From a virus (Duplodnaviria; Heunggongvirae; Uroviricota; Caudoviricetes): a DNA stretch of 21,560 nt. The notes beneath the pieces are model-generated. The model made no database searches. It was given only the letters and a program-made list of their open reading frames with translations, and was not told where the DNA came from. Location: IMG/VR virus record IMGVR_UViG_2698536476_000013, positions 1 through 21,560 of that record; one strand, 5' to 3'. Positions 1 through 21,560 of the stretch are shown here, in pieces. The translations under genes and the position numbers were made by a program. Every line of letters starts with the position of its first letter. The first letter of the stretch is position 1.

Positions 1-148
1 TGTGTCCATATTACGTGGGTAGGATCACGCAGGGGTCGGCCCATTTGAGCTTCAGATAGGAACGTTTGAATTCCTTTCACAAAATACATCACATACTGAA
101 CGTGAACATTCCCACTTTGATCTTAAGGCCAAAAAGTATGCAGGACTA

Positions 149-1867
149 ATGATTTTTAGGGATAGCTTGAGAGTATTACCTTATGGTCGAGTAGATAATG
201 ATTTCTTCCAGATAGAAGAAAGACGTTCATGGAATGCAGGGCGATATTATTGGTCTAATAGAAGGATTTTTGGTTATATTGGAATTACTCAATCCAGTAA
301 TAAAGAGCTGAAAGATAAGTCGGGGAGAGAGGGATTCATAAGAAACCAGGCTGCAAGAGAACTGAAAACTATTATATCTAATTTGTTAACTGAACTTGCT
401 GATAGATTTTTTGGTTCACGTTCTGATGACCGTAAAGAGCTTTTAGAACAAGTTAAGCGTGAAAAAGAGTTAAGAAAATCTGCTCAACAACAAGCTCGAA
501 AATCAACACAAAAAAGTTTTTCAGAAGCTTTGAAGAATCAGACACCAGTTCTTGATGCTTCCTTGGAGGCTGTTAAAAGGCTGAAAACTAAGCTTGATAA
601 AACTGATGGTTCGTTAGATTTAAACTATCTTAAAATTATAGACAGTGATCTTACAAACTTAGATGCGTTGCGCAGTGAAATTAAAACGCCTATCAAACCT
701 CCAAAACTTGGAATGTATGAAGAGAAATATAGAGACTACAGAGATAAATTTAATGAGTTCTCTGCGTATATTCTACAAATGAAGTTAGCAATTAATAAAC
801 TTGATTCTGAATTAAATAAACTTGAGCCTTCATTGTCAGCGAAAAATCACCTTGAAAAAAATCAAGGTATTATTAATTCTAAACTAACTAAGTTTAATAA
901 CACGATAGAGGAGAAGATACATTCTCTTTTAAAAAAATGGGCCGATGAAATAAAGGTTGATCGAAGTGATTATTATGCTAAAACTATATCAGTTGTTGAT
1001 TCAATAGATAATGATTCACAAATTGAAAATGTGTTTAATTTGCTCGATAGTTTATATGTTGAGTCAGTTGATACCCTAACTTTCAAATATCAATCAATAA
1101 TAAAAGGTCTCGATAGATTATTTGAAGGTATAAACTTAGATTCAGCATTCTCATTATCTGAAGAAGAACGCTCATATTTTGAAGAAAAAGCTAAAAGTTT
1201 AAACGCGCTTGCACAGTTAGGTATTAGTGTTGAGATAATATCTCATGAACTTGAAGAAATGGATTCTATGGTAACCAGAGGACTAAACTCTCTTCCTACT
1301 TCTGTAAAAGAACACCCTGGTTTTTCATTGGCGTTAAATGCTCACAGATCGCTTACTCAACAAATACGTTTCTTATCACCTTTGAAAATATCAGGTTATC
1401 AATCCAGGCAGAGAATAACTGGAAAAAATATCATGGATTATGTCCTGAAGTTCTTTGGGGAGCGTTTCGAACGGCAACGAATAACTATTGAATTTAGTGA
1501 AGAGTTTAAGCAAATCGCAATAACAGATATACCATCAAGGATCTATCCTGTTTTTACTAATATTATCAACAATGCAATGTATTGGGTCAGTCTGTCAAAT
1601 AATAGGCTCATAAAGATTGGTTTTGTGAATTCTTTGGTTATCATAGCAAATTCTGGTCCGGCAATTGATACCGATGATATCCCGCGACTATTTGAACTAT
1701 TTTATAGCAAAAGAGCAAATGGACATGGGGTAGGTCTGTATCTATGTCGAGAAAACCTTGCTGTTGCACATCATAAAATATGGTATTTAGAACCTGATGA
1801 AGGCGATAACTATTTAATAAAAGATGGCGCTAATTTTGTGATCCAGTTCAATGGAGTGGAGTTCTAA
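149..1867 (+). CDS. Soluble histidine-kinase-like protein (HisKA-like H-box plus HATPase_c/GHKL ATP-binding domain), 572 aa
   Basis: The C-terminal third of the translation carries kinase hallmarks: H-box-like 'EIISHELEEM', N-box 'FTNIINNAMYW', G-boxes 'DTDD..LFELF' and 'GHGVGLYL'. The N-terminal ~340 aa is K/E-rich and coiled-coil-like with no obvious transmembrane segment. The frame stays open upstream to nt 23 without a start codon, so a 5' truncation cannot be excluded. Confidence 0.7.
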   Translation: MIFRDSLRVLPYGRVDNDFFQIEERRSWNAGRYYWSNRRIFGYIGITQSSNKELKDKSGREGFIRNQAARELKTIISNLLTELADRFFGSRSDDRKELLEQVKREKELRKSAQQQARKSTQKSFSEALKNQTPVLDASLEAVKRLKTKLDKTDGSLDLNYLKIIDSDLTNLDALRSEIKTPIKPPKLGMYEEKYRDYRDKFNEFSAYILQMKLAINKLDSELNKLEPSLSAKNHLEKNQGIINSKLTKFNNTIEEKIHSLLKKWADEIKVDRSDYYAKTISVVDSIDNDSQIENVFNLLDSLYVESVDTLTFKYQSIIKGLDRLFEGINLDSAFSLSEEERSYFEEKAKSLNALAQLGISVEIISHELEEMDSMVTRGLNSLPTSVKEHPGFSLALNAHRSLTQQIRFLSPLKISGYQSRQRITGKNIMDYVLKFFGERFERQRITIEFSEEFKQIAITDIPSRIYPVFTNIINNAMYWVSLSNNRLIKIGFVNSLVIIANSGPAIDTDDIPRLFELFYSKRANGHGVGLYLCRENLAVAHHKIWYLEPDEGDNYLIKDGANFVIQFNGVEF

Positions 1868-1868
1868 T

Positions 1869-3617
1869 ATGACAGTGGCAAATTATAATTCTCTTGTCCA
1901 GAAAACTTTCTGCGAAAATGCAATTCGTTCCGTTGTCATGATTGATGACGATTTTCTGACGTATTCTGAATCAATCAGGGCGTTGAATAACGAAGTTGAT
2001 TTAGACTACAACAAAATTGACTCATCTAAACGAGCCGCTACTCTTGAGAGCTTTTTTCAATCTAAAAATATGATTTGTGATGTTGACAATGGTTCTGTTA
2101 ATTTCGATGTGGATCGGATTAGAAAATCAGATCTTATTATTGTAGATTATCATCTTGATAATAATGCACCTGATAAAACACTTAAACTATTACAAGATTT
2201 GAAAGACTCCGATCATTTAAATATGATTGTAATATATACTAGAGAGAATTTAGAAACGGTTTGGATGCAGATATCATCGACTCTCAAAGGTGCTCTGGAT
2301 ATCAACAGCTTGATCATTGACTACGATAATGAAGATGTCCAAAGTTATTGGGAAGACGTTGTATTACCGAACTTAAATGATAATGGTAATAAAGCTCTCA
2401 CAAGAGATGAAACAATAGCCTATATTAAAGACAGTAAGCCTTGTAGAAGAATTAAAAGATTAATACATGATGATGCTGTGTTGGAGGATCAAAAGGATAA
2501 AAACTTCATTGCAAAAATGATTGCAGAATATGCTGTGTCTAGAAATGCAATTATTTCTAGCAACACATCTGGCAATGTCATTCGGGGTGATGAAAGCGGA
2601 GTAAAATGGATTCAATGTGGTAATATCTTTGTCTCCCTATTTCATAAGGTTCAAGATGATCATGAAAACGATGGAGATAGGATTTGGCAAACTCTCAATG
2701 ATTCTCTCATTGAATGGAAACCATCTTATTATCAGTTAATAAAATCTGAAATTCAGAATGCAATCGAAGCTGAGGCTTTATCTTTTGTAAATCATTTGGC
2801 TAACGATCATTACGGTCAAGCTGCGTGGTTAAATGAGATATTAAAATCAGACTCGCCTGATATTAGATGTAGAAATATTGACTTTGTATTTGGTAATTTA
2901 TCAGAAGAGCTTTATCAAAGACTTAAAAATAATAATACGCTGGATGAATTTATCAAAAGTGTTTTTGATAGCTATTCAAATGAATACGCTAACAGCGGAG
3001 TTGCTGCATTGCTCCAATATTGCTCTTCAAAAATGGATCTGCCATCAAATAATGATACTTATCACGAAATGTATCATGCTTTAAATATGAATTTGTCTTC
3101 AAAGAATTTTGAAGATGGTCATATTTCTACTGGCACTATTTTCTTTGATACAGAGTCGAACAAATGGTATTTATGTGTATCTGCGGCATGTGATTTGGTT
3201 CCTACTCAGGGTAACGACCCTCACCATGTAAGATTAAGTCCGCACAGGCTCATTAAAGTTCTGGAGCTTTTTAACGCCAGTCAGAGTAAAGCATTGCCAT
3301 TTGCTGAACATTCGAAATATATATATGTAATGCATAAAAATCAAAGAAAATATCTCTCTATTTTCGAAGGGGATAAAACGCTTCCTGTTGTTGATTATAT
3401 GGTGGTGTTGAATCATGGAACAACAGTTGATGGCGAAGAAAAAAATATTATTTCTGCCGTGTTTTTAAGTAATATGGATGGCAACGTGCAAAATGTTCCT
3501 GTCCGACTCAAACTTAAATCTCAACTGAGAACTGGTTATGCAGAAAGATATCAGGCTATAGCGTCTCAGTATAGCTCAAGGATTGGTGTGGATTATGTAT
3601 CAATGATGCTACCATAA
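1869..3617 (+). CDS. Receiver (REC)-domain protein with ~450-aa C-terminal domain of unknown function (candidate effector), 582 aa
   Basis: ATG at 1869 is preceded by GGAGTGGAG and lies 1 nt after the upstream stop (TAATATG), indicating translational coupling; the longest ORF starts at 1851. The N-terminal ~130 aa has receiver-like motifs: acidic pocket 'VVMIDDD', phospho-acceptor-like 'LIIVDYHL', and 'NMIVIYT'. The remainder has no motif I can name. Confidence 0.65.
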   Translation: MTVANYNSLVQKTFCENAIRSVVMIDDDFLTYSESIRALNNEVDLDYNKIDSSKRAATLESFFQSKNMICDVDNGSVNFDVDRIRKSDLIIVDYHLDNNAPDKTLKLLQDLKDSDHLNMIVIYTRENLETVWMQISSTLKGALDINSLIIDYDNEDVQSYWEDVVLPNLNDNGNKALTRDETIAYIKDSKPCRRIKRLIHDDAVLEDQKDKNFIAKMIAEYAVSRNAIISSNTSGNVIRGDESGVKWIQCGNIFVSLFHKVQDDHENDGDRIWQTLNDSLIEWKPSYYQLIKSEIQNAIEAEALSFVNHLANDHYGQAAWLNEILKSDSPDIRCRNIDFVFGNLSEELYQRLKNNNTLDEFIKSVFDSYSNEYANSGVAALLQYCSSKMDLPSNNDTYHEMYHALNMNLSSKNFEDGHISTGTIFFDTESNKWYLCVSAACDLVPTQGNDPHHVRLSPHRLIKVLELFNASQSKALPFAEHSKYIYVMHKNQRKYLSIFEGDKTLPVVDYMVVLNHGTTVDGEEKNIISAVFLSNMDGNVQNVPVRLKLKSQLRTGYAERYQAIASQYSSRIGVDYVSMMLP

Positions 3618-3688: not shown

Positions 3689-4105
3689 TTATTTTTGTTT
3701 AAGTCTTCTAAGCTTCATGCATTCTAATGAGAATAATAATAGAGTTGTGCTGTATATAAAGCCAGAGTTAGTTAATAACTTTAAATTTAATGCTTCAGGA
3801 TTTTCACTGAGAAAGTGAAAGGCATAAACTAAGTATACAGCTAAAGTAGCCGTTCCAATTGTTGGTCCAATATCGCCTTGATCATGAGGTTCAAGGTTTA
3901 CATTGAACTTGAAGATTAGCCATTCAAATCCCCAAGTAAAAAAAACAACTAATATCATGGCTGCGAATAATTTCGCGATGTTATCTGCTGATGGATTCAT
4001 CAGAACAGATTGTTTCTGAAAAAATTCACAAAGTGAGAGTCCGAAAAAAATAAAAAAAAGTGGTCTGGAACTAAATTTTTCAAAAACTTTGAATAGGGTT
4101 TCCAT
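3689..4105 (-). CDS. Small integral membrane protein (3-4 predicted hydrophobic helices), 138 aa, unknown function
   Basis: Hydrophobic stretches 'LFFIFFGLSLCEFF', 'LFAAMILVVFFTWGFEWLIF', 'ATLAVYLVYAFHFL', 'GFIYSTTLLLFSL'. AT-rich like the neighbouring cargo. Lies 38 bp downstream of the integrase stop on the same strand. Confidence 0.5.
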   Translation of the reverse strand: METLFKVFEKFSSRPLFFIFFGLSLCEFFQKQSVLMNPSADNIAKLFAAMILVVFFTWGFEWLIFKFNVNLEPHDQGDIGPTIGTATLAVYLVYAFHFLSENPEALNLKLLTNSGFIYSTTLLLFSLECMKLRRLKQK

Positions 4106-4143: not shown

Positions 4144-5373
4144 TTAGGCTACCAGAGCATTTGATCTTTGAGCTTGAACGTAATCACTCCACCATTGCAT
4201 CAAACTCTGTCGCTCTATCAGATATTCTGCACGATTGTATGCTGCGATAATTTCATCTTTTTTCGAGTGGGCAAGCGCTGCCTCAAGAACTTCAGCTCTG
4301 AATTTACCAGACTCCTCTGCCGCTGTTCGTGCAATAGAACGCATACCGTGAGCTACAAGCTCGCCTCCGAACCCCATTCGGATGATAGCTGCGTTGGCTG
4401 TTTGTTCATGCATATGATTAAGAGGCGCTTTTATGCTGGGGAAAACCCATTCTCTATGCCCACTTATTGATTTCATTAATTCAAGGATGCGCAAAGCTTC
4501 TTTACTCAAAGGAACTTTGTGAAGCTTTTTCATTTTCATGAAATCAGCAGGAATGTTCCAAATGCTGTTGGTTGTATCAATATCAGACCACCTTGCGCGA
4601 ACGGCTTCACCCGGACGAACCCATGTCAACAATTGCCATTCAATTAGCATACGTGTTTCCAACCGGATTGACGCATTCGTCAAAGATTCCATAAACCTTG
4701 GCAATTCGCTTGGGGGAAGGGCAGGCATATTTTGCTTTTTTGGTTTACTGAATCTTTGACCAAGGTTGTCAGCCGGGTTGAACTCAATAAGTTCTTCAGT
4801 AGCTGCCCACCGGAAGATTTCATTCAGACGTGAAATGATACGGCGTAGAGTTTCCAATACGCCTCGTTGCTCAATAGGATCAAGGTGTTGTTTTAAGAGC
4901 TTAGGTCGGATCTCATTGATAGGGACATTACCCAGACCGGGAAAGACATTTCTCTCTAAGCTGCGCCAGATGTCTGCTGCATGGTCTTGTGAGATACCTG
5001 ATGTCTTTACCTTCTCATCTAACCATTTCCGCGCTACGGCTTGGAGAGTGTGCTCAGTAGCACTCTTTAATGCCTTCGCCTTATCGTTGTTATGGATTTG
5101 GGGATCAACACCATTTGCCAGAAAGGAGAGATATTCATCACGTAAGGCTCTGGCTCTTGCAAGGGTAAGGTGAGGATATGTCCCAAGGCTCATTTTGGTT
5201 CTTTTCTTGCTCACTGGTACTGCATACCTGAAATACCAATTTTTCTTGCCTCCTTTCGCCAAAGGAGCGATTCGTAGAATCAGACCATCACCGTCAAACA
5301 AGTTGATTTCTTTATCGGCTGGCTTGGTGCTTTTGATTTCAGTGTCAGTGAGCTTCTTAGCGATTTTTGCCAT
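4144..5373 (-). CDS. int: Tyrosine recombinase, P4/CP4-57-type integrase
   Basis: N-terminal arm-binding signature 'LTDTEIKSTKPADKEINLFDGDGLILRIA...WYFRY' and C-terminal catalytic region '...HGMRSIARTAAEES...AYNRAEYLIERQSLMQWWSDYV'. The likely start is the ATG at 5373 (GAGGG RBS); the longest ORF extends to 5415. It sits immediately downstream of the ssrA 3'-end fragment, as P4-type integrases do next to their tRNA/tmRNA target. Confidence 0.85.
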   Translation of the reverse strand: MAKIAKKLTDTEIKSTKPADKEINLFDGDGLILRIAPLAKGGKKNWYFRYAVPVSKKRTKMSLGTYPHLTLARARALRDEYLSFLANGVDPQIHNNDKAKALKSATEHTLQAVARKWLDEKVKTSGISQDHAADIWRSLERNVFPGLGNVPINEIRPKLLKQHLDPIEQRGVLETLRRIISRLNEIFRWAATEELIEFNPADNLGQRFSKPKKQNMPALPPSELPRFMESLTNASIRLETRMLIEWQLLTWVRPGEAVRARWSDIDTTNSIWNIPADFMKMKKLHKVPLSKEALRILELMKSISGHREWVFPSIKAPLNHMHEQTANAAIIRMGFGGELVAHGMRSIARTAAEESGKFRAEVLEAALAHSKKDEIIAAYNRAEYLIERQSLMQWWSDYVQAQRSNALVA

Positions 5374-5538
5374 TTTGGGACCCTCGGTTTTTGGACCCTT
5401 CTTAGTGGGTCCCATTCAGGGTGCCATAACTCGTAGTTCTCAGCAATTCTCACTGGACGACAATAGACGTAAAAAAGCCCGCAGAGCTTGTGCTGTGTGG
5501 GCTTAGTAGACTTCATTGAACTTCAAACAACTAAAAAG

Positions 5539-5574
5539 TGGTGGAGCTGGCGGGAGTTGAACCCGTATCCGAAA
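5539..5574 (-). other. att site: 3'-end fragment of ssrA (tmRNA) including the CCA end, with 2 mismatches to the E. coli ssrA 3' end as I recall it; rest of ssrA absent
   Basis: Minus-strand reading 'TTCGGATACGGGTTCAACTCCCGCCAGCTCCACCA' matches the remembered E. coli ssrA terminus '...TTCGGACGCGGGTTCAACTCCCGCCAGCTCCACCA'. Sequence further 5' of this on the minus strand does not resemble the ssrA body. Confidence 0.75.
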
Positions 5575-5768
5575 AATTCTTAACCAATTGAATATTAATG
5601 ATTTTTCTAATTTAAAATACCTCACGTGCATTTTACGTGCATATTGTAGTACCTCTAACGTCCTGATTCTGTCCAACATTTTGAAGTGTTTAGCCGCCAC
5701 TGGGGCGGTGATTAGCGCTGTTTTGTGCTGTTCATAGCACTTCAAGACTATTCAATTCAGAGCAATCG

Positions 5769-5797
5769 TTGAAGAATTACCCGTAAGGTAATATCAT
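5769..5797 (+). promoter_or_regulatory. Putative sigma70 promoter for the moron operon (TTGAAG-17 bp-TATCAT)
   Basis: -35-like TTGAAG at 5769-5774 and -10-like TATCAT at 5792-5797 with a 17-bp spacer, about 110 bp upstream of the 5909 start. Confidence 0.35.
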
Positions 5798-5831
5798 ACT
5801 ATTTAGGTAACTGCGGTTATCACCATCAAGG

Positions 5832-5866
5832 GCCACTGATGACGCTGTTATCATCAGTGGCTTTTT
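5832..5866 (+). terminator. Terminator-like hairpin (10-bp stem CCACTGATGA/TCATCAGTGG) followed by TTTTT, located inside the 5' leader of the moron operon
   Basis: Read directly: GCCACTGATGACGCTGTTATCATCAGTGGCTTTTT. A second hairpin CTTCACTG-CACAGC-CAGTGAAG at 5871-5892 abuts the GAGGAG RBS. Confidence 0.45.
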
Positions 5867-5908
5867 GTACCTTCACTGCACAGCCAGTGAAGTGTTGAGG
5901 AGACTAGC

Positions 5909-6250
5909 ATGAGAACAGTAGCGAGAAGATCGATACAGACGATTGAGCGTCGGACTCAACTCGTCAGTTCTTTTGTTGACTCAAACACAGCAAACGAGTT
6001 CTTCGTGAGAAGACTGAGTGATCGTGTCTCCCCGGCACGTCAGCTGTTTATTGTGACATTGAACAATGAGGTTCGTGACGGTGACGTGATCCCGTTCGCT
6101 GAGATCGCCATGAACAAAGAAAAATTGCGCTATGTTGTGAAGCCAGCAGATCAGTATCCTCAGTATGTAAGCAGTAATCTGCTGAAGAAAATTGAAGCGG
6201 CAATTGCTCTATACATGCAGAAGAACTACAGGGAAATTAACTACCATTAA
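5909..6250 (+). CDS. Hypothetical protein, 113 aa (first gene of moron pair)
   Basis: ATG preceded by GAGGAG RBS at 5897-5902. No recognisable motif. The next gene starts 11 bp after its stop. Confidence 0.55.
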   Translation: MRTVARRSIQTIERRTQLVSSFVDSNTANEFFVRRLSDRVSPARQLFIVTLNNEVRDGDVIPFAEIAMNKEKLRYVVKPADQYPQYVSSNLLKKIEAAIALYMQKNYREINYH

Positions 6251-6261
6251 AAGGTTGCTGA

Positions 6262-7029
6262 ATGGCTCCTGCGTTAATACCTTCATATAACAAGGACTTG
6301 AACATTACGCCATTTGGCGAAAAACGTCTTATTGAGTCATTCTATTTTTTCACTGCCGAGGTTGGCTTACTGAGGGCTGATGAGTACATTGTCAGTTCTG
6401 GTGAGTTTCAGTACTACTTGGATGTGTATCAACTGGGATGTTCCACCGACGACTTTTTTTTAGACTATGGCAGTGACCTTCTTGATTCGAAGGTTCCAAT
6501 GCAGGATCTGGTCAATACCCTCTTGGGTCTTGATATGGTAGACGATAACAAAACGATAAGAATAGGTCGTATACAGTTCAACGACTTTAATTTTATCGAA
6601 GAGAACGGTCAGATGATGACCGGAAAGCAAGTGAAAAGCGCTGTTATCGCACAGGATTTCCAATCAGCAGGTTTGGCGCGTGAGATCTATAAAATGCTTG
6701 CGCGAAAGCATGAGTTTCTCATCTGCGATAACATTCAAAGTATTGCCGGTGGTGCTCTTTGGGCTAGTAGCATCATTCGAATTGCCGAGGTACGGATCTA
6801 CAATTCACGCACGAAGAAATTTATGGACATACTTGGTCCAGGTGCGCGTGGCGTTTCAGGTACTTTGCCATGGAGTGCGAATGATCTGTCTGTAGATGAG
6901 ATTGTTCGCTGGGGTCGTGCGTATGATGATGAAAACTGTTGTCGTCACATTGTACATGTTATCTGTAAGGACCGACTCATTGACGATCAATTTCATGATT
7001 ATGTTTCGATAGGTGGCGCGACAGAATAA
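6262..7029 (+). CDS. Hypothetical protein, 255 aa (second gene of moron pair)
   Basis: Long ORF in operon arrangement with the 113-aa gene. No motif I can name. It ends just before a bidirectional terminator and is convergent with the prophage int. Confidence 0.6.
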   Translation: MAPALIPSYNKDLNITPFGEKRLIESFYFFTAEVGLLRADEYIVSSGEFQYYLDVYQLGCSTDDFFLDYGSDLLDSKVPMQDLVNTLLGLDMVDDNKTIRIGRIQFNDFNFIEENGQMMTGKQVKSAVIAQDFQSAGLAREIYKMLARKHEFLICDNIQSIAGGALWASSIIRIAEVRIYNSRTKKFMDILGPGARGVSGTLPWSANDLSVDEIVRWGRAYDDENCCRHIVHVICKDRLIDDQFHDYVSIGGATE

Positions 7030-7041
7030 CCATCAAAAAGA

Positions 7042-7064
7042 CCCGGCATTTGCCGGGTTTTTTC
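7042..7064. terminator. Bidirectional intrinsic terminator between the moron operon and int
   Basis: AAAAAG-CCCGGCA-TT-TGCCGGG-TTTTTT: a GC stem flanked by an A-run on one side and a T-run on the other. Confidence 0.5.
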
Positions 7065-7070
7065 TTCAAA

Positions 7071-8276
7071 TCACTTCTTCATTCCAGATTCCATTGCGGT
7101 TTTCCCGTCGTATTCAGCCAGGTATTTACCGTAATTGCGGAACAGCATTTCCGGCCCCTTATGCCCCATCTGCCCGGCAAGCCAGAAAAGGTTTACACCC
7201 TGGCTAATGTGTCTGGTGGCGAATGTGTGGCGCGTCTGGTACGGGTTACGGTAGCGCACACCAGCTTTTTTCAGGGTCGGCACCCATGCTTTTTTACGGA
7301 TAGCGTCGGCGTTCGTCCAGGGTTCTCCCGTTTTCGGATCGCTGAATATGAACTCACTTTTCATAAAGGTGTATTGCTTCTGCGCCTGCAGGGCTGCCAG
7401 CGCCTCACTGTTCAGCTCCACCTTACGGGTACCGGCTTTTGTCTTGGTGCCTTTAAGTACCCCTACGACACTGGCCGCCTGAACGTGGGCTGTGTTCGCG
7501 ATGGTGTCGAGATCAGCCCAGCGCAGCGCGCACAGTTCTGAGCTCCGCAGACCTGTATTGAAAGCAAAGCGGAACAGGTTTTCCCATTCCCTGTACCTGC
7601 AGCTCTGGTAAATGGCAAGGGTCTCCGCTGGCGTGAACGGGTCAACCTCGTAATCGTCGGCGCTCGGGCTACTGTCGATCACGTGGTACCGGCTGGCGCT
7701 GACGAGGGTTACCGGGTTAATGGTCAGCAGGCCATCCGTAACAGCTTCATCAATGGCGCTGCGCAGAAATGACAGGTTATTCCTGATTGTTTTCAGCTTA
7801 GTTTTTCGGCTGGCTATCCAATTTTTTAGTATCGCAGGCGTCAATTCTGTTACATGTAGTTTATGTAGTTCTGATAGTGCTGATAGACATTTTTCGTAAC
7901 CGCCAATGGTTGACGGCGACAGATTACGGTTTATGCAAATTTTCAGGTATTCATCAAGATAGGACTTAATATTTTTGGTTTTCTTTACTACACCGAATAA
8001 CTCCAGTTTTTTGGAATTGGGGAAATATTTCGCATATTCAAACGTTCCGCTGGCGATCTGATTTTGTATCTCCCCTAGCAGGCGCTCAGCATATTTTATA
8101 CCACGTGTATTTGCCTCAAGCCGAGATAGGGGCTCCCTGCAAAGAACCCCTTTATATGTGAAAGTGATAACTAGTGTTGAAGCAGTTTTATGCTTACGAA
8201 TAGTTACTCCTCTTGGCAGAGATAATAATCCTTGTTCTTTCTTGCCCATTTTGAAACCTCTATTAAGTCGACCCAA
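7071..8276 (-). CDS. int: Tyrosine integrase, lambdoid phage type
   Basis: C-terminal catalytic signature '...RHTFATRHISQGVNLFWLAGQMGHKGPEMLFRNYGKY' (R..H..R..Y) with an upstream SAM-like core-binding region. An alternative start at 8249 ('MGKKEQ') is possible. Confidence 0.85.
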   Translation of the reverse strand: MGRLNRGFKMGKKEQGLLSLPRGVTIRKHKTASTLVITFTYKGVLCREPLSRLEANTRGIKYAERLLGEIQNQIASGTFEYAKYFPNSKKLELFGVVKKTKNIKSYLDEYLKICINRNLSPSTIGGYEKCLSALSELHKLHVTELTPAILKNWIASRKTKLKTIRNNLSFLRSAIDEAVTDGLLTINPVTLVSASRYHVIDSSPSADDYEVDPFTPAETLAIYQSCRYREWENLFRFAFNTGLRSSELCALRWADLDTIANTAHVQAASVVGVLKGTKTKAGTRKVELNSEALAALQAQKQYTFMKSEFIFSDPKTGEPWTNADAIRKKAWVPTLKKAGVRYRNPYQTRHTFATRHISQGVNLFWLAGQMGHKGPEMLFRNYGKYLAEYDGKTAMESGMKK

Positions 8277-20909: not shown

Positions 20910-20985
20910 GGCCCTTTAGCTCAGTGGTGAGAGCGAGCGACTCATAATCGCCAGGTCGCTGGTTCAAATCCAGCAAGGGCCACCA
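20910..20985 (+). tRNA. tRNA with CAU anticodon, Ile2 (lysidine)-type, resembling ileX/ileZ; includes CCA
   Basis: Cloverleaf folded by hand: acceptor GGCCCTT/AAGGGCC, D-stem GCTC/GAGC, anticodon loop CTCATAA, T-arm GCTGG-TTCAAAT-CCAGC, 3' ACCA. Confidence 0.85.
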
Positions 20986-20994
20986 TATCACATA

Positions 20995-21071
20995 CCGCCA
21001 TTAGCTCATCGGGATAGAGCGTCAGCCTTCGAAGCTGGCTGTGCGGGGTTCAAGTCCCCGATGGCGGTCCA
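20995..21071 (+). tRNA. tRNA-Arg (anticodon UCG), argN-like; includes CCA
   Basis: Acceptor CCGCCAT/ATGGCGG, anticodon stem TCAGC/GCTGG with loop CTTCGAA, T-arm CGGGG-TTCAAGT-CCCCG, discriminator T plus CCA. Confidence 0.8.
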
Positions 21072-21084
21072 TTATCAGCATCAT

Positions 21085-21161
21085 GCGTTGTTAGCTCAGC
21101 CGGACAGAGCAATTGCCTTCTAAGCAATCGGTCACTGGTTCGAATCCAGTACAACGCGCCA
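21085..21161 (+). tRNA. tRNA-Arg (anticodon UCU), argO-like; includes CCA
   Basis: Acceptor GCGTTGT/ACAACGC, anticodon stem ATTGC/GCAAT with loop CTTCTAA, T-arm ACTGG-TTCGAAT-CCAGT, discriminator G plus CCA. Confidence 0.85.
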
Positions 21162-21560
21162 CACCACACTTATCTGCCCTGACTCTCTTTTGCGGGCTTT
21201 TTATTACAGGAAAGACACCGGACAGTGAAATGTTAAATGCCTCACAATTCAGGTAGTCGACTGTTGCCTGACATGCTGAGCGTTTGTTAAAAAAATCCTG
21301 CATGATGAATCCCCCTGGGCGGCGGGGCATAATGACAGATGTTTGGTTGCGTATTGTATAGGCAAGTTGCGGATTCTGTCTGGTCATTGCAGAATTCACC
21401 GGGAGGCACCCGGCATCATGCTGTATACAGAGATTAGGCATATATCCAGGCCCCTCATCGCAGGAGCCTTTTTACATGCAAAAAAAGCCCGAGTAGGTTC
21501 GGGCAACAGCATGAGATACTTGCATTGTCATTTTTATCGTGTGGATTTTAACCAGGGTTT

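Follow-up and report, generated by a model that had tools for sequence, protein, structure and literature searches.

Two-gene modules that join a small protein to a GNAT protein are known from the GNAT/ribbon-helix-helix (RHH) type II toxin–antitoxin systems (TacAT, AtaRT, KacAT, ItaRT and GmvAT), whose antitoxins carry an N-terminal RHH and a TacA/DUF1778 C-terminal region, and from TopAI–YjhQ of Escherichia coli K-12 (yjhX–yjhQ), which shows that in such a pair the small protein can act as toxin, with the GNAT as its antitoxin. Classical phage morons (lambda rexAB, bor and lom; e14 lit) are autonomous promoter–gene–terminator units inserted between modules, and in the type III system ToxIN a terminator sets the ratio of a short RNA to the read-through mRNA. 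Here we analyze a 21,560-nucleotide (nt) stretch of Caudoviricetes DNA (IMG/VR record IMGVR_UViG_2698536476_000013, positions 1 to 21,560; hereafter the window), in which two genes, ORF1 and ORF2 (5909–7029), lie between the attachment site (att) and the integrase gene (int) of a lambdoid prophage. Judged by its sequence, the pair is a horizontally mobile, self-contained two-gene phage moron. New are the GNAT fold of ORF2 with its motif, the GNAT-like partner ORF1, and the palindromes and leader terminator borne by the cassette, which we tentatively read as a gated conflict module.

The two ORFs are present exactly where the preliminary description had placed them. ORF1 (5909–6250, plus strand) encodes 113 amino acids (aa) with an isoelectric point (pI) of 9.8, begins with ATG and has the Shine–Dalgarno sequence GAGGAG at 5897–5902; ORF2 (6262–7029, plus strand; 255 aa, pI 4.8) follows after a gap of 11 nt and has its own, AAGG, 8 nt upstream. 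Both are convergent with int (7071–8276, minus strand), as had been claimed, together with a downstream bidirectional terminator. The hairpin with stem ACCCGGCA/TGCCGGGT at 7041–7058 lies between an A-run and a T-run and is therefore assigned as a bidirectional intrinsic terminator common to ORF2 and int (7035–7064; sequence and terminator scan). For ORF1, the ratio of nonsynonymous to synonymous divergence (dN/dS) against copies from other genera is 0.08–0.19; for ORF2, dN against the Atlantibacter copy is 0.06 with dS saturated, and the family alignments of both proteins retain dozens of invariant residues. The substitution pattern indicates that ORF1 and ORF2 are real genes under strong purifying selection. 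Within ORF2 lies a T8 homopolymer (6454–6461, plus strand). Four chromosomal E. coli copies keep T8 and an intact ORF2, and all five PhiR12 phage records (5/5) read T7, a frameshift that splits ORF2 into two annotated ORFs (L027, PhiR12_1, 713–1479). Possible sources of the T7 are an error in sequencing, slip-strand switching and the loss of a costly gene.

As modeled, ORF2 adopts a divergent form of the GNAT fold and resembles acyl-CoA acyltransferases. Its confident structure model displays the GNAT core, a mixed sheet with the β4–α3–β5–α4 unit, and its family profile reaches proteins with Pfam GNAT domains over profile positions 97–190. Motif A of GNATs (Q/R-x-x-G-x-G/A, in the β4–α3 loop), which binds the pyrophosphate of coenzyme A (CoA), reads Q134-S-A-G137-L-A139 in ORF2 and R-G-A-G-L-A in the close-family consensus, and hhalign aligns this loop with motif A of YjhQ. 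In the SSU5-like branch the motif is degenerate, with the glycine replaced by alanine or serine. Residues invariant across the family include R103, Q123, K125, Y143, D156, Q159, W167 and Y180, and the polar ones among them point to an active or binding site. The best structural match is HAT1, and the structural neighbors include many detoxifying GNATs, namely Mpr1, aminoglycoside and streptothricin acetyltransferases, RimL, and MccE, the last of which is matched by the ORF1 model.

ORF1 is also confidently modeled, as a helix, five strands and a helix forming a small GNAT-like α/β sheet, again with HAT1 as best structural match; no CoA-binding motif was found in it. A duplication of the N-terminal half of ORF2 was considered as its origin and rejected (hhalign probability 0.4%). 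Pfam and NCBIfam contain no match for ORF1 or ORF2, PDB sequences searched by profile yielded no meaningful match to either, and the BFVD viral fold search returned no close relative (best TM-scores ~0.4). PHROGs place ORF1 in phrog_2594 and ORF2 in phrog_3307, both annotated as of unknown function; copies are otherwise annotated only as hypothetical proteins, and the searched literature does not mention them. The earlier statement that neither protein has a recognizable motif is thus half true, since ORF2 has a GNAT fold and a motif-A-like loop. The remote-homology and structure searches that the preliminary description proposed delivered that fold for ORF2 and a small GNAT-like sheet for ORF1, but curated libraries name neither; homology to a structural or housekeeping phage function was not detected in any of these searches.

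The pair occupies an accessory slot next to att. The window matches the chromosome of E. coli O103:H2 strain PV16-126 with 100% identity and holds, from left to right, an island with a P4-type integrase, a 3′ copy of ssrA (the transfer-messenger RNA (tmRNA) gene), ORF1 and ORF2, and a lambdoid prophage that starts at its integrase and extends beyond the tRNA cluster at 20910–21161. Window positions 5400–5574 are matched at annotated ssrA in most E. coli genomes, other E. coli copies of the ssrA prophage are similar to the window only from 5539 rightwards, and the tmRNA covariance model gives partial matches at 5540–5599 on the minus strand. On these three grounds the 36 nt at 5539–5574 (minus strand) are assigned as the displaced ssrA 3′ end, the att core forming the prophage boundary on the cassette side, in agreement with the att-proximal position proposed earlier. 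The adjoining arm (5575–5693) lies outside the cargo and is common to all prophages of the ssrA-integrating type, being kept both in the UMNK88 prophage and in prophages carrying a DUF4760 gene.

In UMNK88, att and int are nearly adjacent and the slot is empty, and comparison with it sets the cargo boundaries at ~5694–7070. Many O26, O103 and other genomes have a prophage that agrees in att and integrase type, has identical early proteins downstream, and holds a DUF4760 gene in the slot; the pair itself was found in 10 of 5426 complete E. coli genomes. The guanine-plus-cytosine content of the cargo is 43%, against 49% in the rest of the prophage. These comparisons indicate that the pair is accessory cargo, outside the integration module. 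Presence or absence between similar phages, insertion between modules, atypical base composition and, in silico, an own promoter and terminator all mark it as a moron. The proposal of a two-gene moron in a variable att-proximal slot is borne out, including the expected variation of cargo among near-identical prophages, and universal conservation as part of the integration module is contradicted by the carriage count. The alternative cargo is a 302-aa DUF4760 protein encoded on the opposite strand (L002, 6276–7184, minus strand; UTAK-6 and many O26/O103 genomes); it has a marginal PADLOC match only, is far commoner than the GNAT pair and is equally uncharacterized.

Outside this slot the two genes keep together in unrelated surroundings. 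ORF1 is directly followed by ORF2 in 59 of the 60 loci fetched, with a gap of 0–11 nt or an overlap; only the P1-like phage RCS47 departs from this, with an ORF1 that stands without ORF2, and no solitary ORF2 was found among the 60. The RCS47 homolog (L005, 4974–5324) is 33% identical and adjoins hot, humD and phd-doc; it could be an orphan neutralizer or anti-addiction gene if the pair is toxin–antitoxin-like. Among 50,697 phage records, matches are confined to PhiR12 (with integrase), SSU5-like phages with a partition gene, and P1-like RCS47. In the SSU5-like phage-plasmids the pair is flanked by Rz lysis genes and parA, as annotated in SSU5 and PhiR41_1, and an unannotated Klebsiella phage record contains a pair that matches. 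In Yersinia prophages the pair separates the major tail gene from a DUF6246 gene (tail-chaperone-like), and in Leclercia and Xenorhabdus it stands between the DUF6246 and tape-measure genes. Pantoea and Xenorhabdus have it inside baseplate clusters of myovirus type; in Buttiauxella it occupies the interval from the Q antiterminator to the lysis genes, on the opposite strand, and in Atlantibacter it adjoins an integrase. In Photorhabdus it is found at three chromosomal sites that are non-prophage or remnant. One adjoins a chloramphenicol acetyltransferase gene, the second is flanked by hrpA and a type VI secretion system Hcp gene (with a tandem duplicate in one genome), and the third is bounded by an HsdR_N-like gene and an integrase. 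The tandem copies of Photorhabdus akhurstii (L020, 3967–5051 and 5633–6723) each have their own TATCAC-N5-GTGATA palindrome. The family is small, with ~40–50 clusters at 50% identity, and taxon-named copies are almost all from Enterobacterales.

The cassette also carries its own control region. A promoter scan identified a sigma-70-like promoter at 5769–5797 (plus strand), with −35 TTGAAG (5769–5774), a 17-nt spacer and −10 TATCAT (5792–5797). The promoter-like sequence of the preliminary description stands by its position, which is conserved in Atlantibacter and Yersinia (TTGATT-17-TACACT in the latter), but not by its motif alone, which is within chance (1 site versus 3.1 expected in shuffles). 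The operator-like palindrome O1 (ATTACC-N5-GGTAAT, 5776–5792) fills the promoter spacer, and a second palindrome, O2 (GGTAAC-TGCG-GTTATC, 5806–5821), coincides with the leader hairpin P1 and is a perfect GATAAC-N4-GTTATC in other E. coli, Atlantibacter, Buttiauxella and Leclercia copies. By pattern search of 363 kb of loci, O1 and O2 occur almost only 77–234 nt upstream of ORF1; the O1 pattern lies upstream of ORF1 with a single exception (two Xenorhabdus copies also have it, at −77), and all matches to perfect O2 (7/7) are located 90–103 nt upstream of ORF1. Since the palindrome arms are conserved and the spacers variable, the palindromes point to recognition by a protein; since they move together with the cassette, their simplest reading would be autoregulation by one of its products. 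No DNA-binding fold or domain was detected in the cassette proteins. Photorhabdus copies have the different palindrome TATCAC-N5-GTGATA in the equivalent place, and among the palindromes this alone appears to resemble lambda-type operators when they are compared with the Fur, Zur, LexA, DnaA and lambda operator consensus sequences.

Between promoter and ORF1 the leader is predicted to fold into three hairpins, as are nearly all of the 28 distinct close-subfamily leaders when folded one by one. P2 (5831–5866, plus strand; terminator scan and folds) consists of a 12-bp stem followed by T5 and resembles an intrinsic terminator, an element that the preliminary description had overlooked. P2 with a U-run is present in 24/28 of these leaders versus 128/600 random windows, a contrast that is not a formal probability since the 28 are related sequences, and P2 ends 41–53 nt before the ATG in most of them. 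P3 (CTTCACTG/CAGTGAAG, 5871–5892, plus strand; folds) lies just upstream of the Shine–Dalgarno sequence; a hairpin of different sequence occupies its position in other leaders, with a compensatory C–G to T–A change in Atlantibacter. Wobble and compensatory changes are seen in both P2 and P3. The leader evidence consists of the per-sequence folds and the hairpin scan with its random-window control; RNAalifold on a MAFFT alignment, in which the hairpins are misaligned, recovers parts of P1 and P2 only, and an Rfam search of the leader returned a tmRNA fragment and no known cis-regulatory RNA.

With a terminator downstream of the promoter and ahead of the genes, the operon is predicted to be off most of the time and to depend on a signal for read-through, or else the ~60-nt leader RNA would itself be a product. 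A second promoter between the leader terminator and ORF1 was considered and rejected, because these 43 nt include the Shine–Dalgarno sequence and have no acceptable −10. A candidate 19-codon ORF, MTLLSSVAFCTFTAQPVKC (5838–5897, plus strand), starts in the 5′ arm of the terminator after AAGGG and ends before the ORF1 Shine–Dalgarno sequence. Its start codon changes to GTG in Atlantibacter and is missing from Yersinia, and leader-peptide attenuation is doubtful for want of conservation at this position. The SSU5-type pair has a leader of ~110 nt (L003, 5409–5600; L004, 5428–5610) that includes CTCGTAGCCTCTAAACC...GGTCGCCGC, is apparently well conserved in nucleotides between SSU5 and PhiR41_1, whose proteins are ~28–34% identical to those of the window, and lacks a terminator-like hairpin; it may be a different regulatory element.

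Our preferred reading, with a probability of roughly 0.4, is a lysogen-expressed, tightly gated conflict module, toxin–antitoxin-like or abortive-infection/exclusion-like, built on an acyltransferase. It draws on the strict pairing, the restriction to temperate-type elements and islands, the swappable slot, the independent orientation, the heavy control of expression, and the occurrence of solitary ORF1 but never solitary ORF2. On this model, the cassette-borne sigma-70 promoter, with its operator-like palindromes, and the ~105-nt structured leader would control one mRNA for both proteins, and P2 would halt most transcripts before ORF1 unless termination is relieved. ORF1 and ORF2 would probably work as a complex, in which ORF2 would be the effector that acylates a macromolecular target and ORF1 a stoichiometric basic partner that restrains, targets or (auto)regulates it. 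What the sequences show is the gene pair, its mobility, the changing cargo of the slot, the purifying selection, the GNAT fold and motif, and the conserved leader and palindromes; complex formation, catalysis, toxicity, autoregulation and anti-phage benefit are inferred, as is the defence or toxin–antitoxin-like role suggested by the preliminary description. Tight gating by the palindromes and the leader terminator would fit a harmful product, and the solitary ORF1 of RCS47 would fit a harmless or neutralizing partner. A bolder extension, on the doubtful side in our estimate, is a new class of phage-borne GNAT conflict system, with a basic mini-GNAT-like partner in place of an RHH antitoxin, leader-terminator gating and the leader RNA as a possible third component or infection sensor.

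Several observations weigh against a gated acyltransferase module of this kind. At 255 aa, ORF2 is longer than the matched solved GNAT toxin chains (154–180 residues); no GNAT model of Pfam or NCBIfam matches it at E-values up to 1; and Trp167 presumably takes the position of the Tyr that serves as catalytic residue or general acid in many GNATs. The motif-A glycine is not kept across the whole family, and ORF2 could be a non-catalytic CoA-binding fold given this loss in part of the family. ORF1 shows no RHH, helix-turn-helix or DUF1778 signature, and its fold is unlike those of the known antitoxins of GNAT toxins. PADLOC-DB v2 contains no match for either protein at E-values up to 1. In the distant branch (Photorhabdus, Xenorhabdus and SSU5-like), only 1 of 16 leaders has the terminator, and in several phages the pair lies in a late operon in the same orientation, which makes expression during lytic growth possible.

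An enzyme of lysogenic conversion ranks foremost among the alternatives, though unlikely in itself. ORF1 and ORF2 would form a two-subunit acyltransferase, a heterodimer resembling a split tandem GNAT, that modifies a small molecule, an antibiotic, a peptide toxin or an envelope component, and the benefit to the lysogen would be separate from phage conflict or self-toxicity. The shared match of both proteins to GNAT structures with HAT1 at the top, the many detoxifying neighbors, the resemblance of ORF1 to MccE, a microcin-immunity protein, and the chloramphenicol acetyltransferase gene beside one Photorhabdus pair all agree with such an enzyme. Yet a single neighboring gene is weak evidence, ORF1 lacks the CoA-binding motif, and the leader terminator and promoter palindromes are unusually tight for a harmless product. 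We place somewhat lower the possibility that the acyltransferase inactivates a host or rival-phage protein during infection or induction. AcrVA5, a GNAT anti-CRISPR, is a precedent for such counter-defence, the fold would suit it, and the Yersinia, Leclercia, Xenorhabdus and Pantoea pairs sit within late structural operons in the same orientation, where late transcription could read in. Host takeover is harder to reconcile with the own promoter, with the orientation opposite to the neighboring genes in E. coli and Buttiauxella, with the Photorhabdus chromosomal sites outside prophages, and with the phage records, in which the pair is found only in integrase-carrying, partition-gene-carrying or P1-like phages.

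Quite improbable in our view is a non-catalytic GNAT-fold sensor, in which ORF2 would bind acyl-CoA in the manner of PanZ or the ICL2 C-terminal domain and, with ORF1, regulate element maintenance or the lysis–lysogeny decision. The unrelated positions in unrelated phages are hard to square with a role in the regulation of one element, and neither protein has a detectable DNA-binding domain; the degenerate motif A of part of the family is its counterpart in favor. That the ORFs arose by chance or are decaying remnants without function is hardly credible. The purely hypothetical annotations and the ORF2 frameshift of the PhiR12 records would be expected of remnants, but the dN/dS values of ORF1, the low dN of ORF2 at saturated dS, the invariant residues across many Enterobacterales genera, the pairing in 59/60 loci and the confident models all contradict decay. 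Readings beyond those set out here jointly take a small share of the probability, ranking after host takeover and before the sensor.

Several features surround the cassette in the window. The prophage tyrosine integrase, outside the cargo, is recognized by Pfam Arm-DNA-bind_2 and Phage_integrase and by RefSeq annotation. Just beyond the prophage att, the P4-type-integrase island (integrase at 4144–5415, minus strand) has further genes within 148–3616 (plus strand) and at 3689–4105 (minus strand), so arranged that the single ssrA site is flanked by two accessory regions, the island standing back to back with the prophage cargo slot. The island encodes a 572-aa histidine-kinase-like protein with HEF_HK and HATPase_c domains and a 582-aa Response_reg_2 protein; PADLOC has no match for either, and the domain combination features in comparative-genomics predictions of conflict systems. 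At the far end (20910–21539), a tRNA-Met/Arg/Arg cluster is followed by the small RNAs STnc100 (21271–21479, plus strand) and AgvB (21480–21539, minus strand), identified at the Rfam gathering score. In enterohaemorrhagic E. coli, such tRNA clusters are a feature of the prophage segment from Q to the lysis genes.

Prophages of pathogenic E. coli (O103:H2 and E110019) carry the pair, as do Salmonella and Klebsiella phage-plasmids of the SSU5-like type, and it might there affect the host range of phages used in therapy or the stability of the elements. If the preferred reading of a toxin–antitoxin-like or anti-phage module is correct, a GNAT-based family with a new type of partner would join the phage-defence repertoire. 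One cassette would then be seen to hop among the att/int, Q–lysis, tail, baseplate and partition regions of temperate phages and phage-plasmids that are not related to each other, and would illustrate in compact form how a leader terminator can gate an accessory operon of a phage. Should it prove a plain conversion enzyme, a fold and a testable active site would still be gained for two PHROG families of unknown function.

Set beside the described systems, the cassette is a GNAT-based mobile module of two genes whose partner protein and leader are both unusual. Its layout is like that of the GNAT/RHH systems, but it is not a member of them: ORF1 has neither the N-terminal RHH nor the TacA/DUF1778 region of their antitoxins, and other GNATs are at least as close to ORF2 as TacT or AtaT. 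TopAI–YjhQ likewise consists of a small gene, an 11-nt gap and a GNAT gene; membership in that system was rejected, with hhalign probabilities of 0.06% for ORF1–TopAI and 7.4% for ORF2–YjhQ, the latter over the generic motif-A region only. Described defence protein families, as covered by PADLOC-DB v2 and the searched literature, gave no match, and by structure the eukaryote-type protein N-acetyltransferases HAT1, Tip60 and NatD/Naa40 are among the closest known systems. ToxIN shares the order of promoter, short structured RNA, intrinsic terminator and protein gene, a likeness of layout only, since the cassette leader has no tandem RNA repeats and neither cassette protein has an endoribonuclease fold. 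With the classical morons it shares autonomy, variable presence, a different base composition and insertion between modules; it has no sequence or fold relation to them, and differs in being a strictly paired cassette with its own conserved leader.

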